A stretch of 64,000 nt of DNA from Trueperaceae bacterium (GTDB lineage Bacteria; Deinococcota; Deinococci; Deinococcales; Trueperaceae): NCBI GenBank assembly GCA_965213705.1, contig OZ243913.1, forward strand, positions 3,872,001-3,936,000, read 5' to 3'. Numbering within the stretch: position 1 is the first letter of the stretch; each line of letters opens with the position of its first letter. The translations under genes and the position numbers were made by a program. Shown one piece after another: positions 2,580-32,170 of this stretch. The notes beneath the pieces were generated by a model that saw nothing but the letters and a program-made list of their open reading frames with translations, was not told the DNA's origin and did not search any database.

Positions 2580-3209
2580 ATGAACCGTAAACCGCTCGTC
2601 ATCGGGCTGGCCGGGGGCACGGGCTCGGGCAAGACGACGGTCGCCGAGGCCGTCATAAGTGCGGCCGGGGCCGACCAGGTCGTCATTCTGCCCCAAGACG
2701 CCTACTACCGCGCCCAGCACGACCTCCCCGCCGAGGTGCGCGCGCTGACGAACTACGACGAGCCGAGCGCCTTTGACACGGACTTGCTGGTCGAACACGT
2801 CGACGCGCTGGTGCGCGGCGAAGGCGTGGCGCGGCCCGTCTACGACTTTACCCGGGACGACCGCGCCGAAGCCACCGTGCCGCTGGACCCGGCCCCGGTG
2901 CTCGTAGTCGAGGGCATTTTGGTCCTGCACGAACCCGAACTGCGCAGCCGCATGACGCTCAAAGTGTTCGTGGACGCGCCGCCCGACGAGCGCTTTATCC
3001 GGCGCTTAGAGCGCGACGTGAAAGAACGCGGCCGCAGCGCCGAGAGCGTCATCAACCAGTACCGCCGCACGGTCAAACCCATGCACGACCTGTTCGTCGA
3101 ACCCACCAAGGCCCACGCCAACCTCATCTTCCCCGAAGGCGGCGAGAACCGCGTTGCGCTGGACGTGTTGAGCGCTTACATTGTCAACTTTGTCAAAAGC
3201 TATTCGTGA
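2580..3209 (+). CDS. udk: Uridine kinase
   Basis: IGLAGGTGSGKTT P-loop, QDAYY, NYDEP, RRLERDVKERGR; TAGCCT 6 nt before ATG. Confidence 0.95.
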   Translation: MNRKPLVIGLAGGTGSGKTTVAEAVISAAGADQVVILPQDAYYRAQHDLPAEVRALTNYDEPSAFDTDLLVEHVDALVRGEGVARPVYDFTRDDRAEATVPLDPAPVLVVEGILVLHEPELRSRMTLKVFVDAPPDERFIRRLERDVKERGRSAESVINQYRRTVKPMHDLFVEPTKAHANLIFPEGGENRVALDVLSAYIVNFVKSYS

Positions 3210-3398
3210 CCTTGTGCAAAGCTTGGAAGAGGAAAGTACCGAGTACCTAGTGAAAAGTGGAAAGTAAAAGTCAAAAGCTTTGACTTCCCTACTCAGACAG
3301 CCCCTAGCCCCACGCCCCGACCAAGGGTTAGACTACGAACTTATGTCCGCGGCCGACTCTTCGCAGCGGCTCAAACTGGAACGGTACGGGACAAAGCT

Positions 3399-5228
3399 AT
3401 GCGCTTAAAAACGGTTCTCTGGTTGCTCATCCTGCTGAGCCTCATCCCTGCCAGCGTCCTCGTCGTACGCCGCGTGCAGGCCGAAGGCGGGCGGCGCACG
3501 GTGACGATTTTGATGGACGAGGCCGCCTTGGACATTCAAGCGCAGTACCTGGGCGTGAGCAGTTTGGAGTTGGGGCGGCACTACCAGAGTTTGGGCCTGA
3601 ACGGCATCGCGCTTTACGAAGACACTTTGGAAAGCGCCGAGGCCAAGGGTAAACTTGCCGTGCTGCTCGCGTCCGAGGCGGAGGAGCTGGCGCTGGCTCG
3701 AGCCGAACCCCTGCCCGACCTGCCGCCCGACAGTTTGCTGGTGAGCGAGTTGGAGCCGGGGGCGCTTCGTGGGACCCTCGCCAAAAACGCACCCAACCCC
3801 GAACAGATGGTGTTTTTGGGCCGTCCCTGGTTCGTCTACCCCGGCCGCGCCGTCGAGGTGCGCCCCGCCGGGCCGGATAGGGTGTCTATAGAGGCTTGGG
3901 CGGCGGCAGGTTTCGACATCGCCTACCGCCCGCGCAACTTTCCGGGTCTACGCGGCGTCGGCGCGGACTTTCCGCCCGAGGCGCACTACCTTATCCACGC
4001 CGGTTTACAGGTGGCGGGCTACCCGAACAGCTTGACGGAACTCGTCGCCGCCTCGCAACCCTACCTCACCGGCGTCATCGAAGGCACCGAGCAGGACGGG
4101 ATGCCCCAAATCGTCCGCAAAGTTCCCACCGCGCGGCTGCTGAGCTTCAACCAAGACTACGTCAACCAGCGCCTGACGCCGCAAAGCCTGATTGACAAAT
4201 ACCTGCTCGCCGCCAACGAGCGCGGCGTGCGCATCTTTTACCTGCGGCCCTACACCGAAGAACAGCTCGGCGACATGTTCGCGAACACCGACCGGCTCGT
4301 TGAGGGTTTGGCGGCGCGGCTCGAGCAAGAGGGTTACACGATTGGCCCGCTCGAGACGCTCGACCTCAACTATCAAACCAACGCCCTGTTCCGAGGCTTG
4401 AGCGCGCTCGGCGTGCTGGCCGGACTTGTTTTGCTGGCCCTGCTCTACCCCGGCGTGTGGGGACTGCTCGTCGCGCTCGGCGTGCTCGGTTTGGGCGTCT
4501 TCGCCAACGGCTTCGACTGGGGCGCGCTGGCGCTCGCCGCCGCACTCACCTTTCCGGTCATCGGCTACGGTCACCTGAAAGAACGTTTGACGAGTCTGGG
4601 GCTGGCGACGCTCGTCAGCTTAGCGGGCGCGATACTGTTGTCGGCAGTCGGCAGCGACCGCGAGGCGATGCTGGCGATAAACCCGTTTGCAGGCGTCGCG
4701 GCGACGCTTGTCGTGCCACCCGTTTTGTTCTTGTTTCACTACGCGCTGCGCTACCGCCGTCCGGCGAGTTGGGTGCGGGACTTTTGGAACTACCCCATCC
4801 GCGTCGGCAACGTGGCGGTGGTGCTGCTCGGGCTGTTCGCGCTGGCGCTGGTCTTTTTGCGGCGTGGCAACTTTCCGCTCATCGGGGCGAGCGGCGGCGA
4901 GTTGGCGCTGCGCAGTTTGCTCTCGGACCTGTTCGTACGGCCTCGCTTCAAAGAGTTGTTGGGACATCCGCTGGCGGTGCTGGGGTTGACCGAGCGCGGT
5001 TTGCCGGCTTGGGTCACGGCGGCGCTGCTGACCGGCGGGGTGGTGGCGCAGGCGAGCATCTTAAACAGCTTCAGCCACTACCACACGCCGCTGCTCGTCT
5101 CCTTGCAGCGCACCGTCGTGGCGCTCGTGCTGGGCCTCGTCATCGGGCTGCTGCTCGTGCCGGTCGTCAAACTCACGCTTCGTCTGGGGCGGCGCTGGCT
5201 GGCGAGCGCGGACGTGACGAGTGGGTAG
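3399..5228 (+). CDS. DUF5693-family membrane protein (csaB-associated)
   Basis: N-terminal TM, AANERGVRIFYLRP, RPRFKELLGHP, NSFSHYHTP, multi-TM C-terminus; directly upstream of csaB. Confidence 0.8.
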   Translation: MRLKTVLWLLILLSLIPASVLVVRRVQAEGGRRTVTILMDEAALDIQAQYLGVSSLELGRHYQSLGLNGIALYEDTLESAEAKGKLAVLLASEAEELALARAEPLPDLPPDSLLVSELEPGALRGTLAKNAPNPEQMVFLGRPWFVYPGRAVEVRPAGPDRVSIEAWAAAGFDIAYRPRNFPGLRGVGADFPPEAHYLIHAGLQVAGYPNSLTELVAASQPYLTGVIEGTEQDGMPQIVRKVPTARLLSFNQDYVNQRLTPQSLIDKYLLAANERGVRIFYLRPYTEEQLGDMFANTDRLVEGLAARLEQEGYTIGPLETLDLNYQTNALFRGLSALGVLAGLVLLALLYPGVWGLLVALGVLGLGVFANGFDWGALALAAALTFPVIGYGHLKERLTSLGLATLVSLAGAILLSAVGSDREAMLAINPFAGVAATLVVPPVLFLFHYALRYRRPASWVRDFWNYPIRVGNVAVVLLGLFALALVFLRRGNFPLIGASGGELALRSLLSDLFVRPRFKELLGHPLAVLGLTERGLPAWVTAALLTGGVVAQASILNSFSHYHTPLLVSLQRTVVALVLGLVIGLLLVPVVKLTLRLGRRWLASADVTSG

Positions 5229-23156: not shown

Positions 23157-24035
23157 CTAAAACGCGTAGCGCACCGTGCAGTAAGGCACGACCTCGGCCA
23201 TCAAATCTTTGAGCGCGCGCACCTGCCGACCCTTAAACCCACTTCGGTAGCGCACGTTGTCGCCGCCCATCTGCGAGGTCTTCGCCTCCTGGTTGTGCGG
23301 CGTCCAGAGGAGTTCTTCGGCTTTCGGGTGCCAGCCCAGATTGACCTCGTGCAGTTGCTCGTTGTGAGTTAAAAAGATAACCTCGGCTTTGAGTTGGGCC
23401 TTGGCCGCCTCTGAAAGTGTGTCGTCGACCTCGGTCAGCAGCGCGCGGTAGTCTTCCAGCCAGCCGTCGTAAAGGACGACCGGGCTCAGGTTGAGGTGAA
23501 CTTCGTACCCTGCCGCGACGAAGTCGCTGACGGCGCTGATGCGCTCACTCATCGGCGAGGTGCGCACGTCGACGGTTTTGGCGACTTTCTGGGGCATGAG
23601 CGAGAAGCGGACGCGCGTTTTGCTTTGGGGGTCGTAGCTTAGCAAGTCCCGGTTGACATACTTCGTCGCGAACGAGGCTTTGGCGTTCGGCAGCGTCTTA
23701 AAGAGGGTGACGAGGTCGCGCACGTTGTCGCTTATGAGTGCGTCCACCGAACAGTCGCCGTTCTCACCGATGTCGTAGACCCAGAACGTGGGGTCGGTCT
23801 GGGCCGGGATTTTGGGCTCGAGGGCGGAAGCGTGTTTGCTGATGACTTTTTGGATGCCTTCGATGTTCACGAAAGTCGTGACGGGGTTGGCGTAGCCCTT
23901 GCGGCGGGGCACATAGCAGTTGTGCGTCACGACCCCGTTTGCCAAGTAGCTTTCGGGGCCGGGTACGTGAAAGTTGTAGACTTTGGCAGGGCCTTTGACA
24001 CGCTTTATGCGCTTGACAGGTTGATAGTTGAGCAC
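23157..24035 (-). CDS. Split-intein C-fragment fused to C-terminal part of spore photoproduct lyase family radical SAM protein
   Basis: GAGGAGG RBS, GTG; IntC 24035-23919 ends VYNFHV...YLANGVVTHN; extein starts CYVPRRKG..YDIGENGD..FATK..RFSLMP. Confidence 0.9.
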   Translation of the reverse strand: MLNYQPVKRIKRVKGPAKVYNFHVPGPESYLANGVVTHNCYVPRRKGYANPVTTFVNIEGIQKVISKHASALEPKIPAQTDPTFWVYDIGENGDCSVDALISDNVRDLVTLFKTLPNAKASFATKYVNRDLLSYDPQSKTRVRFSLMPQKVAKTVDVRTSPMSERISAVSDFVAAGYEVHLNLSPVVLYDGWLEDYRALLTEVDDTLSEAAKAQLKAEVIFLTHNEQLHEVNLGWHPKAEELLWTPHNQEAKTSQMGGDNVRYRSGFKGRQVRALKDLMAEVVPYCTVRYAF

Positions 24036-24055
24036 AGTCCTCCTCGAGGTGACAA

Positions 24056-24877
24056 GTGGTTAAACAAAACTGTCTGTGGTGTGGCAAAAACGTCACAAGT
24101 GGTGACTTCTGTAACAAAGTTTGCGAGAGCCGCCACACGAACATGATGGGCAAGCCGTGTAAAGCCTTTTATTCTTATGCTCAAGCCGCAGCTTACTTGG
24201 GTAAAGACAGCCGTACCATACGCAAGTACGAACACGTTCTTTTTGTCATCGACAAATCTCTGACCAACAAGCACGCTAGGTTGAGAAGCTGTAAGGTTTG
24301 CGGCGGACTGTTCAAGTCGTTCGAGAACAGGAACGGCTATTGCCCGCCTTGCTCGCAAAGGGGCGAAGGGCGCAAAAATCAAGCGAGAGTGTTGTCGCAG
24401 CAACACCAGGGTGAGGGTAACCCCAACTACGTTGACGGCAGCGCCAAGCAAACGTTCAGACACCTTGGCACAGGTAAGGCTTGGGCCAGAGCGGTTCTCG
24501 CACGTGACGGCGTGTGCCGTTGTTGCGGGAGCGACAGCGACCTTCAGGCGCACCATGTTCTCCCCAACGCCCTCTTCCCGGAGCACGCCACCGACGTTAG
24601 CAACGGCGTTACTCTGTGCGGCCATCATCACACAGAACTTCATCTTGCTCGTTTAGATCTCCTGCTTTTACCCAACCTCTACGCGTCCACAGAGGGTGGT
24701 CCGCCGTTACACGAAGCGTTGTGTCGCCAAGCTCAATTTCAAGAACTTCGTCAACGTCCCTATAAGCCGTTCCGGAAACGACGGCTGTTACGAGCCGTTC
24801 CGAAGAACTATCGAAGGCAACTACTTCGGATCCATCCTGAATTTGCTCGACAGGTACTGGGCCTTGCGGCGTCGTGA
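24056..24877 (+). mobile_element. Free-standing HNH homing endonuclease with Zn-finger and HTH modules
   Basis: GAGGTG RBS; two Cys-rich Zn-finger motifs, FYSYAQAAAYLG HTH, GEGNPNY.DG, W...VLARD..CRCCG...L.AHHV......N.VTLC..HH...H. Confidence 0.88.
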
Positions 24878-25199
24878 CGAGGGTGCCTTCGGCCACACAG
24901 TAGGCGCAGGCCATCGCGCAGCCGTTGCTGGCCCCCGGCGCTATAAAGTCGGCGCTGCGCCCGTTGACGCGCACCGGCAGCGACTTGCGCACGCCTAAGA
25001 CGAGGGTGTCGCGTTTGATGCGCACCCAGTCCTCTACCGAGCCCTCGTTGCCGTGGAGGCTTGGGATATTCCAGTGTGACGGTACTTCAATCCGCTCGGC
25101 GTCGGGAAAGCGGGCCAGGATGTCCTGGCCGCGCGGGTAGCCGGGGACGCTAGGCTCGAGATAAATCTTCCCGACCTTGAGCATCGAGTCCGTGAGCAT
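24609..25199 (-). CDS. N-terminal part of spore photoproduct lyase family protein fused to split-intein N-fragment
   Basis: TGATG coupling to upstream gene; extein ends SNGCAMACAY; IntN 24899-24612 starts CVAEGTLV (block A), has TADHP (block B) and WVKAGDL..QDEV, then TAA. Confidence 0.9.
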   Translation of the reverse strand: MLTDSMLKVGKIYLEPSVPGYPRGQDILARFPDAERIEVPSHWNIPSLHGNEGSVEDWVRIKRDTLVLGVRKSLPVRVNGRSADFIAPGASNGCAMACAYCVAEGTLVTTPQGPVPVEQIQDGSEVVAFDSSSERLVTAVVSGTAYRDVDEVLEIELGDTTLRVTADHPLWTRRGWVKAGDLNEQDEVLCDDGRTE

Positions 25200-26287
25200 C
25201 AAGTCCAGTACAGCACGCGCGCCTGCGGAAAACGCCGGGCGATTTCAGCCTCGAAGAAGGCTTTCAGCTCGAGCATCACGTCTTTGGTGTACACGTACTT
25301 CGTGCCGCCGAACTTGTTGCGCTTGACGCTGCGGCTCGACTCGTCCAAGTCGAGCGAGGTGTTCGGGTACCAACTCAGCAACACCTCCTTCGAACCCGGC
25401 GTAAAGCGGTGCGTGATGAGTTCGAAGGTGAGGTCGCAAGGAAAGTCGAGCGCGGCCTCTATCTTGTCGAACAGGTCCGTGTAGTGCGCGCGCCAGTCCT
25501 CGCCGGGCATAATCGGCGCGACGACGAGCCCGACGGGATAGTCGGCCAGCGCGAGCTTGCGTAAAGCTTGCAAGCGCTTCTCGACCGAGGCGGTGCCGCC
25601 TTCCAAGCGCTCGACCGGCGCGGCGTTGACCGAGGCCCTGGCCCGCGTGTGACCGTGGTGGGGCACGTCCAGCAAGGGCTCGACCGCGTCGAACTTGCTC
25701 ACATAGCGCAACCGTGCGTTCTCCAAACCTCCGAAGTGCCGAACGCACTCGCTCAGGGAGTGGGTGAGGTGCTCTAAACCCAGCGGGTCGGTGTAGCAGC
25801 TCACCTCGAAACTCGTCTCGCGGTCCGGCTGCAAGTAGTTGGTGAGGTTGTCCAAAATCTCGTGCAAGTTCGCGTACACCTTTGTCACCGGCGGCCCCGA
25901 CAGCGACCCCGCGAGGTAACAATATTGGCAGTGCGCCGGGCAACCCTGGGCTAGGTGAAACTGGTAGTCGGCCGACGGCGGGATGGGCTGAAGTTTGAAC
26001 TGCGACGGCGGCGCGGTCACGACCGCGAGCGTGCGCTTGGCGAGCCGGTAGGTCTCGCGCTCGGTCTCGCCGCGCAAACCGGTGATGCGGTTACTGCTGA
26101 GTTCCACGGTGGGCACGCCCAGTTCGGTGACGCGCTCGAGAATCCGCCGCCCGTGCTCGTGCTTCAGGGCGTCGGGCGTAAACAGCGCCCGCTCGGGCAG
26201 CCACAGTTTGGGGCGGCCGGTCTTGGTTTTGACGGAAGGTGCGACGAAAGGGGCGGAAGTGCCGACGGTCGGCAGGGCGATAGCCAT
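25199..26287 (-). CDS. Spore photoproduct lyase family radical SAM protein (intact paralog)
   Basis: PIPPSADYQF.LAQGCPAHCQYCYL, FEVSCYTDP, FELITHRFTP, KFGGTKYVY; AAGGAG RBS. Confidence 0.9.
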   Translation of the reverse strand: MAIALPTVGTSAPFVAPSVKTKTGRPKLWLPERALFTPDALKHEHGRRILERVTELGVPTVELSSNRITGLRGETERETYRLAKRTLAVVTAPPSQFKLQPIPPSADYQFHLAQGCPAHCQYCYLAGSLSGPPVTKVYANLHEILDNLTNYLQPDRETSFEVSCYTDPLGLEHLTHSLSECVRHFGGLENARLRYVSKFDAVEPLLDVPHHGHTRARASVNAAPVERLEGGTASVEKRLQALRKLALADYPVGLVVAPIMPGEDWRAHYTDLFDKIEAALDFPCDLTFELITHRFTPGSKEVLLSWYPNTSLDLDESSRSVKRNKFGGTKYVYTKDVMLELKAFFEAEIARRFPQARVLYWT

Positions 26288-26341
26288 AGTGCTCCTTTGT
26301 GGGGGTTGAGAGACGTGAAAAGAGGGGGCGAAAAACCCTGA

Positions 26342-31557: not shown

Positions 31558-31842
31558 TCACCGGTAAATCTTTTTACTACCGGAGTGGCCGCCAATTCGT
31601 AACAGGTCGATGACATCAGGCTCACCGTAATCCCAAGCGATGCGGATGTCGCGGGTAACTTCAACGCTGAAAACTGGGTTGCCATCGCTGTCAAAAGCTT
31701 TGTGGCTTTTCAACTTCGGGTCGCGCGGATTGGTTTGCAACAGGACAAGGACCGAACGAACTTGCTCAGCAAGTTCAGGTTGTCTTTTGAGAAGCTTCTT
31801 GAGTTCGCGGGCAAAGCGTGGTTTGCGATTTAAAGTAAACAT
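31558..31842 (-). CDS. RelE/YafQ-superfamily toxin
   Basis: F.RELKKL...L..NP.DP.LKSH...DIRI......LLRIGGH; 94 aa, basic. Confidence 0.8.
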   Translation of the reverse strand: MFTLNRKPRFARELKKLLKRQPELAEQVRSVLVLLQTNPRDPKLKSHKAFDSDGNPVFSVEVTRDIRIAWDYGEPDVIDLLRIGGHSGSKKIYR

Positions 31843-31891
31843 ACCTCAAGCTTACAAGGGAGATAGGTCAGGCTTCACCGTAATTTTGAAA

Positions 31892-32170
31892 TCACTCGCC
31901 CAACGCTTCCGCCATAATCTCGTCCACGCTCATGATGCGCCCTTTCTCTTTACGGGCCTCAGTTATTTCTTGTGCCTCTTCTTTGGAGATGTCGAGCGTC
32001 GGCAAACCGTCACTCCAAGCTTGCCGCGCCGCGAGTTCGCGCTTGCGGTACAGCTCGGACAGGCCGAGTTTCAGGATTTCGGCGTAGTCGAGCGCCGGGT
32101 ACTCCCGCTTCAGCGCGTTAAGCAGCCGCTCTACGTCTTCGTTGACGGACACACGTATCGTTTTTACCAT
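31892..32170 (-). CDS. Putative antitoxin
   Basis: 92 aa, RHH-like N-terminus, acidic C-terminus, directly upstream of the toxin. Confidence 0.7.
   Translation of the reverse strand: MVKTIRVSVNEDVERLLNALKREYPALDYAEILKLGLSELYRKRELAARQAWSDGLPTLDISKEEAQEITEARKEKGRIMSVDEIMAEALGE

Follow-up and report, generated by a model that had tools for sequence, protein, structure and literature searches.

Results

A radical-SAM gene is interrupted within its Fe-S motif

How does a gene come to be broken in two by the halves of an intein, with an endonuclease gene lying across them on the opposite strand, and can such a gene still yield a whole protein? These questions were raised by a locus in the window, the whole 64,000-nucleotide stretch of Trueperaceae DNA that was analysed. 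A sequence-only reading had suggested a snapshot of how split inteins arise, in which an inverted HNH endonuclease may have invaded and split an intein. The analysis presented here indicated that the locus is probably a three-part element that interrupts a radical-SAM gene at its third Fe-S cysteine. In this element 269 bases code on both strands, an HNH nuclease likely drives homing, and the host halves are predicted to be rejoined by trans-splicing. The features are as follows.

25199-24609, minus strand: N-terminal host ORF, 100 aa of enzyme ending CAMACAY, then the 96-aa N-terminal intein half (IntN)
24900-25199, minus strand: N-extein, 100 aa, spore-photoproduct-lyase-family radical SAM (TIGR03886, E 2e-44, profile positions 2-94)
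24609-24899, minus strand: IntN, 96 aa and stop (Pfam PT-HINT, E 7e-9; TIGR01445, E 3e-4, below cut-off)
24056-24877, plus strand: free-standing HNH endonuclease ORF, 822 nt, 273 aa, with its own start and stop (Pfam HNH_2)
24609-24877, both strands: dual-coded stretch, 269 nt (plus, HNH residues 185-273; minus, IntN residues 8-96)
24036-24055, no strand: divergent spacer, 20 nt, from the HNH start to the IntC start, read from the sequence
23919-24035, minus strand: C-terminal intein half (IntC), 39 aa, His-Asn at its end (TIGR01443, E 1e-7, above cut-off)
24035-23157, minus strand: C-terminal host ORF, IntC (39 aa, terminal HN) followed by 253 aa of enzyme that start at Cys+1
23157-23918, minus strand: C-extein, 253 aa, starting at Cys+1 (TIGR03886, E 3e-130, profile positions 83-346)
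23919-24899, no strand: whole mobile element, 981 nt, IntN, antisense HNH and IntC, a precise insertion relative to empty alleles

Two spore-photoproduct-lyase-like genes lie in tandem on the minus strand, and the second, a TIGR03886 gene, is broken into two ORFs whose host parts score 152 and 434 bits against that profile (cut-off 437.55). The family's name, spore photoproduct lyase, is best read as an annotation. The N-extein ends with the first two cysteines of the CxxxCxxC motif and Cys+1 of the C-extein is its third Fe-S ligand; because the break precedes this third cysteine, neither half has the whole motif, which is complete only across the splice junction. The gene is unbroken in a genome of the same genus (G001) and in two family members, which sets the limits of the element at 23919-24899 (981 nt). 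GC3 was 0.46-0.69 in the element versus 0.80-0.86 in the host genes. No further copy was found in the element's own genome, where the search returned a single weak IntC-like match (E 0.023). A GlnRS feature probably places this host in the Deinococcota.

The first gene of the tandem, an intact SplB-like paralogue directly upstream (25199-26290), scores 321.6 bits against TIGR04070 (cut-off 400). Its stop overlaps the ATG of the split gene, and the tandem pair is also kept in G001 and G024. Elsewhere in the window, two small minus-strand ORFs of 92 and 94 aa (31558-32170) may form a toxin-antitoxin pair of the RelE/ParE type.

The intein halves are predicted to splice in trans

The residues needed for splicing are all present in the two halves: C1, the TxxH motif, the terminal HN and Cys+1. 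In IntN these are Cys1 and T65xxH68, with C1, T65 and H68 invariant among 15 homologues. Net charge is -12 over IntN residues 1-91 and +5 for IntC, and the charges of the two halves are opposite in nearly all split loci. A model of the IntN:IntC complex scored 0.86 against 0.01 for the best control, with pLDDT values of 88-89 and 99% of contacts shared between runs; the mark applied was reached by 116 of 157 solved pairs and 2 of 215 mismatched pairs, and split-intein pairs pass it through their likeness to solved inteins. As in naturally split inteins, the halves would associate by complementary charge, and rejoining of the host halves by trans-splicing is predicted.

PT-HINT, the best Pfam match of IntN and the name that NCBI gives to the homologue P0177, stands for a pretoxin HINT domain inside a secreted toxin precursor. 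This identity was ruled out for the locus, as the flanks are radical-SAM exteins. One distant IntN match (L124:1102-2223) is an RHS-repeat ORF with a pretoxin HINT domain.

Relative to the empty allele of G001 (L002), dN/dS was 0.24 for the N-extein and 0.12 for the C-extein, the former being twice the value of the neighbouring paralogue (0.12). These ratios would fit a working gene and also a recent insertion into a gene that is now dead. That the host gene is dead, with the intact SplB-like paralogue directly upstream covering for it, or that the layout results from misassembly or from a segment that inverts, is very improbable: the splicing residues are all intact and invariant, the charges of IntN and IntC are opposite, one orientation is found in all loci, and assembled contigs span the element. 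The inverted repeats, short and at chance level, likewise led us to reject an invertible segment or artefact.

A single contig spans the element with 0 differences in X1 and again in X2, two runs of a sample that is possibly the source sample; in X3, from a second study, two depth-2 contigs tile a relative that is ~90% identical and in the same orientation. Contigs skipping exactly 981 nt had a summed depth of 84-88 in X3 and X4, contig depth not being the same as a share of cells. Occupied and empty relatives therefore co-occur in one sample, maybe in different species. X3 and X4 also held contigs of depth 15-20 over window positions 23884-24926 that join IntC-like to IntN-like sequence and skip 823 nt, a length consistent with a related mini-intein, contiguous and present in the same sample.

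The HNH gene overprints the splicing domain

The sequence-only reading had described a 573-nt gap between the IntN stop and the IntC start, and a 273-aa ORF on the opposite strand with FYSYAQAAAYLG, GEGNPNY and an HNH core. All of this was confirmed, with the IntN stop at 24611-24609, the IntC start (GTG) at 24035 and the gap at 24036-24608, as were the in-frame stops at 24609 and 24597, the first two of 8 in total including IntN's own. Its view that the HNH gene is nested in the gap did not hold: at 822 nt the ORF is longer than the gap and crosses IntN by 269 nt, ending 22 nt short of IntN Cys1. Nor are there two zinc-finger motifs; the protein has three Cys/His clusters (C6/C9/C19/C23, C79/C82/C96/C99 and C154/C157/C188/H191, the last within the HNH). 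IntN and IntC do share a reading frame, as had been noted, but this is a coincidence rather than the relic of a contiguous ancestor, the element length being divisible by 3 in 7 of the 57 loci that have both halves.

A profile match was obtained with Pfam HNH_2 (21.5 bits, cut-off 21), which also matched 11 of 16 family members; NUMOD1 fell below its cut-off (E 0.0035). H166, N183, H192 and H196 are invariant in 16 HNH sequences and H167 nearly so. By colicin E9 numbering we assigned the catalytic roles, with H192 and H196 presumably the metal ligands. The AlphaFold (AF2) model of the protein had a mean pLDDT of 87.7 and a pTM of 0.54. Its top fold matches were HNH nucleases (Z 5-6), the best being the GVE2 HNH (PDB 5h0o; Z 6.1, rmsd 3.9, 84 residues aligned), and Foldseek gave no match to the model at E<=0.001; such whole-model searches hardly probe the 77-aa tail that follows the HNH core. 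GVE2 HNH has no counterpart of the Cys clusters near the N-terminus of the window's protein and, at 92 residues, is too short to cover the whole tail. The best ESM Atlas match, at 0.75, was uninformative. Although the Pfam and fold scores are modest, the ORF is predicted to combine the HNH motif with the beta-beta-alpha fold of HNH endonucleases.

Translation of the HNH gene would start at GTG 24056, which is preceded by GAGG, or at ATG 24146, as in several homologues. In the spacer, the palindrome CCTCGAGG (24042-24049) puts GAGG ahead of both divergent starts, one on each strand, and we infer a ribosome-binding role for it. The palindrome was absent from the four homologous spacers compared. 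A search for a sigma-70 promoter of the HNH gene gave 0 matches versus 0.9 expected, terminator-like sites numbered 3 versus 4.4 expected, and the spacer RNA folded no better than its shuffles.

The overlap encodes HNH residues C188, H191, H192 and H196, two predicted metal-binding histidines among them, and the 77-aa tail, which is predicted to be helical (block pLDDT 88-96 up to residue 270). The codon of H196 overlaps those of IntN D86/E87, each invariant in 15 inteins. Because each third codon position of IntN coincides with a second codon position of HNH, the overlap is no free by-product of IntN coding.

The element belongs to a family whose three parts behave as one mobile unit

Relatives were collected by two kinds of scan. 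HNH-seeded alignment scans yielded 6 loci from genomes, 49 from metagenomes and 9 from viruses, in which the parts are linked by construction; a scan with IntN only, which is a fair test of linkage, gave 80 viral loci retained from 170. After 6 duplicates were dropped, 139 loci including the window were examined, and 65 of them carry a split IntN at the CxxxCxx|C site. An antisense HNH gene was present in all 40 IntN-retrieved phage loci with an IntN match of at least 90 bits and, at that position, in none of the 40 weaker ones (<90 bits). Near-copies are frequent among the phage loci; in the first set of loci, 24 were <90% identical in the tail. The HNH gene has the same orientation in all loci, and all 15 HNH homologues reach into the tail, two being truncated inside it.

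The host genes fall into two radical-SAM families, TIGR03886, with genes from bacteria and phages, and a TIGR04337-like one. Named carriers among the genome loci are Rubrobacter and Abditibacteriota; in cyanobacteria, split N-halves are annotated (protein records alone). Of 97 protein matches to the IntN profile, 80 are split N-halves, 4 are contiguous and 13 are without the site. The tailed HNH was not found in 50,697 records of cultured phages, where the HNH of Halovirus HCTV-5 (33% over half of the query) was the only match; the IntN matches there (20 of 47 listed) fall in portal, helicase and other annotated genes, with <60% identity.

Across the order (301 genomes), the intein was present in the window's genome only. 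Weak matches (E >= 3e-8) in 46 other genomes lie within long ORFs, and the two inspected are other inteins. Matches were obtained in 11 of 169 genomes of the class around the first carrier (6 mini-inteins), in 13 of 31 around the second (2 split, 1 mini) and in 20 of 104 around the third (2 split); the remaining matches in these classes are to the N-extein only, bar one unrelated HINT. In an extein tree of 39 rows, 9 split alleles require 9 changes, and the window extein pairs with the empty G001 allele, to which it is 92% identical. Grouping the 14 occupied alleles as one clade was rejected (p-AU 1.5e-65, with the long-branch row L027 dropped). Similarity of the HNH proteins follows that of the exteins (Mantel 0.45) nearly as closely as IntC (0.51), and these values do not tell co-inheritance from kinship.

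Scattered presence beside empty alleles, a feature of homing endonucleases, was therefore observed. Repeated precise loss could also leave alleles scattered, but loss cannot carry an element between two radical-SAM families, which makes spread by homing the likely explanation. The mobile three-part unit proposed from the window's sequence is supported by these patterns: the search for the same architecture returned 65 split loci, and contiguous relatives as well, and IntN, antisense HNH and IntC appear to behave as one unit.

Both strands of the overlap bear signs of selection

The frame offset between HNH and IntN is identical in 23 of 23 overlapping split loci, and the length of the overlap across the family is 239-326 nt. 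Antisense codons 10-88 are free of stops in 62 of 65 split loci, the exceptions being two slightly shorter tails and one early stop. When IntN was shuffled synonymously, a mean of 2.6-6.2 antisense stops appeared and the frame stayed open in 0-3% of shuffles per locus. Similarity between tails exceeded that of synonymous shuffles with z values of 7-14; for the window tail z was 13.8 against other tails and 13.0 when the references were restricted to phage and TIGR04337-like ones. In the same pairs, pS was 0.29-0.41 for IntN, 0.85-1.06 for IntC and 0.87-0.94 for the non-overlapping part of HNH. As IntN pS lies far under the other two, tail conservation goes beyond shared descent. In every divergent pair, pN of the non-overlapping part of HNH was far lower than its pS.

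Nature provides controls for both strands. All 7 contiguous mini-inteins without HNH have 1-7 antisense stops. Four solo HNH genes retain the tail though the IntN frame has 1-8 stops, and two solo tails that were compared gave pN 0.29 and pS 0.77 in the HNH frame. An imprint of IntN in these solo genes is weak in L012 (z 3.2) and was not detected in L022, L026 and L033. Collectively, the substitution, shuffling and control data demonstrated selection on IntN, on HNH and on the antisense tail.

These results bear on the idea that the intein pair works while the HNH gene is a passenger, its tail a by-product of codon constraint, and the element spreads only along with its host gene or is removed by precise loss. 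Some HNH copies are indeed broken, by a frameshift in L014, L018 and L072 and an early stop in L038, and spore-photoproduct-lyase-like genes are patchy themselves. We regard this explanation as improbable: an antisense frame would stay open by chance with a frequency of 0-0.03 per locus against 2.6-6.2 stops expected, purifying selection is seen on the non-overlapping HNH, solo copies keep the tail, and the occupied alleles are scattered across host-gene families.

Where the tail came from is suggested by HNH genes at large. Among the best 150 of 25,067 profile matches, ~50 extend into the tail and most others stop 2-35 residues past the last histidine. As IntN is homologous to all Hint domains, the tail would have arisen by read-through over the antisense of IntN.

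At least one split element has re-fused into a mini-intein

In an intein tree of 31 rows (7 near-duplicates and loci without IntC left out), whose deep branches are weak, the mini-inteins require 4 changes, and their placement as one clade was marginally rejected (p-AU 0.035). A tree with outgroups, its deep branches likewise weak, contained four supported sister pairs of a split element and a mini-intein (L016/P0183, L011/L114, L013/P0169 and L030/P0258); 7 of 20 added loci are missing from this tree, three rows include a few residues of extein, and a long branch puts P0263 in the wrong place. The antisense strand of the L114 mini-intein carries a broken HNH tail (z 10.5-13.2, with 13.2 against phage and TIGR04337-like references). 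On account of this decayed imprint, L114 is taken to descend from an HNH-bearing element, and on the same ground re-fusion to a mini-intein is demonstrated for L114; that it happened repeatedly is likely. In P0170 and P0258, IntC leader residues are retained at the junction. Five of six Ktedonobacteria-class mini-inteins tested against distant references had no tail imprint (z -1.1 to 0), so the direction of change in that class is the one that the tree suggests.

Other loci show further states. At L012:201-1715, a contiguous 134-aa mini-intein lies in a spore-photoproduct-lyase-like gene, and directly upstream and divergent (L012:1758-2645) lies a solo tailed HNH with decaying antisense IntN; the two putative decay products of the element adjoin each other here. 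In L030, L031, L032 and L072, unrelated ORFs lie between the HNH start and IntC, the element measures 1.8-4.4 kb and the halves seem to be drifting apart. P0264 (726 aa) is a photolyase-like radical-SAM protein with two contiguous mini-inteins, one of them at CxxxCxx|C and 36% like this family.

More distant inteins, with weaker IntN matches, include split ones with same-strand endonucleases. At L188:2743-4498, the split intein that divides a radical-SAM gene, again at CxxxCxx|C, is a more distant one, and a short same-strand remnant lies between its halves; by its motifs we take this remnant to be nuclease-like, and the locus is a candidate sister state of the antisense-HNH element. Same-strand fractured genes were found on viral contigs (L193, L194, L197, L200, L203, L210, L211 and L216, at ~3000-4300), with hosts that presumably are DnaE, ribonucleotide reductase, topoisomerase and RNA ligase, and nucleases that we take to be Vsr-like and GIY-YIG-like. 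L189 and L196 are split with a gap of ~45-55 nt that holds no nuclease.

Do these loci mean that an antisense HNH invasion split a contiguous mini-intein, whose unsplit ancestors are the contiguous mini-inteins of today? Contiguous mini-inteins do occur at the same site, the missing imprint in the tested Ktedonobacteria-class mini-inteins would be expected of such ancestors, and the models set out in the accessible text of Dassa et al. (2009) and Gosselin et al. (2025) predict such invasions. Even so, we find this order of events as a whole rather unlikely, though the HNH may have caused the split. The mini-inteins are not one clade, and four times one of them is the well-supported sister of a split element; the imprint in L114 and the leader residues in P0170 and P0258 speak for descent from split forms, ancestral mini-inteins would require the same overlap register to have arisen many times, and among the outgroups it is common for the intein to be split already and to have its endonuclease on the same strand.

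The split appears to be old, since it is common to the whole family across phyla and phages, and given the same-strand split outgroups, the L188 site included, the antisense HNH may have entered an intein that was already split. The change that is visible at the sequence level runs from split to re-fused mini-intein. The locus is accordingly not a snapshot of split-intein origin, as had been supposed, and is better described as a member of an old mobile family.

Discussion

The element would work like the fractured genes and is oriented like antisense-endonuclease inteins, while it is without one defining feature of each, as far as the accessible text of the respective papers goes. Fractured genes are described as three coding regions on one strand, with GIY-YIG or Vsr-like nucleases, 27-51 nt of non-coding sequence after IntN and overlaps of 6-69 bp with the start of IntC (Dassa et al. 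2009, PMC2677866). As in that account, the host gene lies in two parts at the same locus and in the same orientation, the intein halves are in frame with each part and have their splicing motifs, and a free-standing endonuclease gene lies between the host parts. Unlike in that account, the nuclease is an HNH, is antisense and overlaps the IntN splicing domain, and the hosts are radical-SAM genes, on bacterial chromosomes too. Re-fusion by nuclease loss is absent from steps III, IIIa and IV of the model given there.

Antisense endonucleases have been described in Synechocystis DnaX, in Chloroflexus SpoVR and, as LAGLIDADG and Vsr-like enzymes, in actinophages, the second ORF typically lying outside the splicing domain (Gosselin et al., 10.1101/2025.01.02.630785). 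By the criterion of Gorbalenya (1998) as cited in that text, the element resembles these inteins in having an endonuclease antisense to the intein and inferred to home with it as a unit; those described there are contiguous and non-HNH, whereas here the intein is split (8 in-frame stops) and the ORF runs across the splicing domain. In ShiLan, an HNH is encoded out of frame within a phage methylase gene (Arsenault et al. 2025, PMC11855218). Like the element, it has a homing HNH in an alternative frame of sequence inserted into a host gene, but as described in the text available it is without intein or splicing domain and its insertion is open in the host frame. The intein-bearing SplB/COG1533 genes reported from Actinobacteria (Novikova et al., PMC4760082, in the part accessible) and the intein-containing Rv2578c family NF038136 likewise have an intein in a radical-SAM, photolyase-like gene. 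NF038136 describes one contiguous protein of 574 positions, unlike the window halves, which score 28.6 and 12.9 bits against it (cut-off 700). The layout of a split intein with an antisense HNH was not found in the part of the openly accessible literature that was searched.

We propose that the host-gene halves would be translated separately and that acidic IntN and basic IntC would ligate ...CAMACAY to C..., by which CxxxCxxC is restored. The HNH protein, made from its own plus-strand transcript, would nick or cut an empty allele close to the point of insertion, and its repair would copy the whole unit. In its origin, a tail-less free-standing HNH gene may have landed backwards at the endonuclease position of an intein, lost its stop and read through IntN in antisense. 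The read-through product would have become a folded, selected domain, and the nuclease would now need intact IntN DNA. The element could decay when HNH is deleted and the intein re-fuses (as in L114), when the HNH departs together with its tail, or when the halves drift apart.

One reading of the whole, which we hold tentatively and at slightly less than even confidence, is that a folded domain was born de novo from the antisense of a splicing domain, became necessary to a homing nuclease, and welded nuclease and split intein into a single selfish gene that cannot be taken apart; the element would then home in its split form across phyla and radical-SAM families, repeatedly re-fuse and shed tailed nucleases.

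Since descent from a split form holds for one mini-intein or more, mini-inteins are not to be presumed ancestral, or decayed canonical inteins. The mobility of split inteins and the reversibility of splitting become testable questions with this family. For protein engineering, it is also a source of dozens of natural split-intein pairs of the Cys1/Cys+1 type, a part of which now carry annotations as toxin-type HINT or hypothetical proteins. Should splicing hold, an Fe-S enzyme would owe its third cluster ligand to trans-splicing. The overlap is a test case for long prokaryotic antisense overlaps coding two selected proteins, in which both ancestors (IntN and a tail-less HNH) are identifiable and both single-function descendants exist as natural controls. 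If the de novo origin of the tail is true, the family would display the full, reversible life cycle of a split intein together with a traceable gene birth by antisense overprinting.
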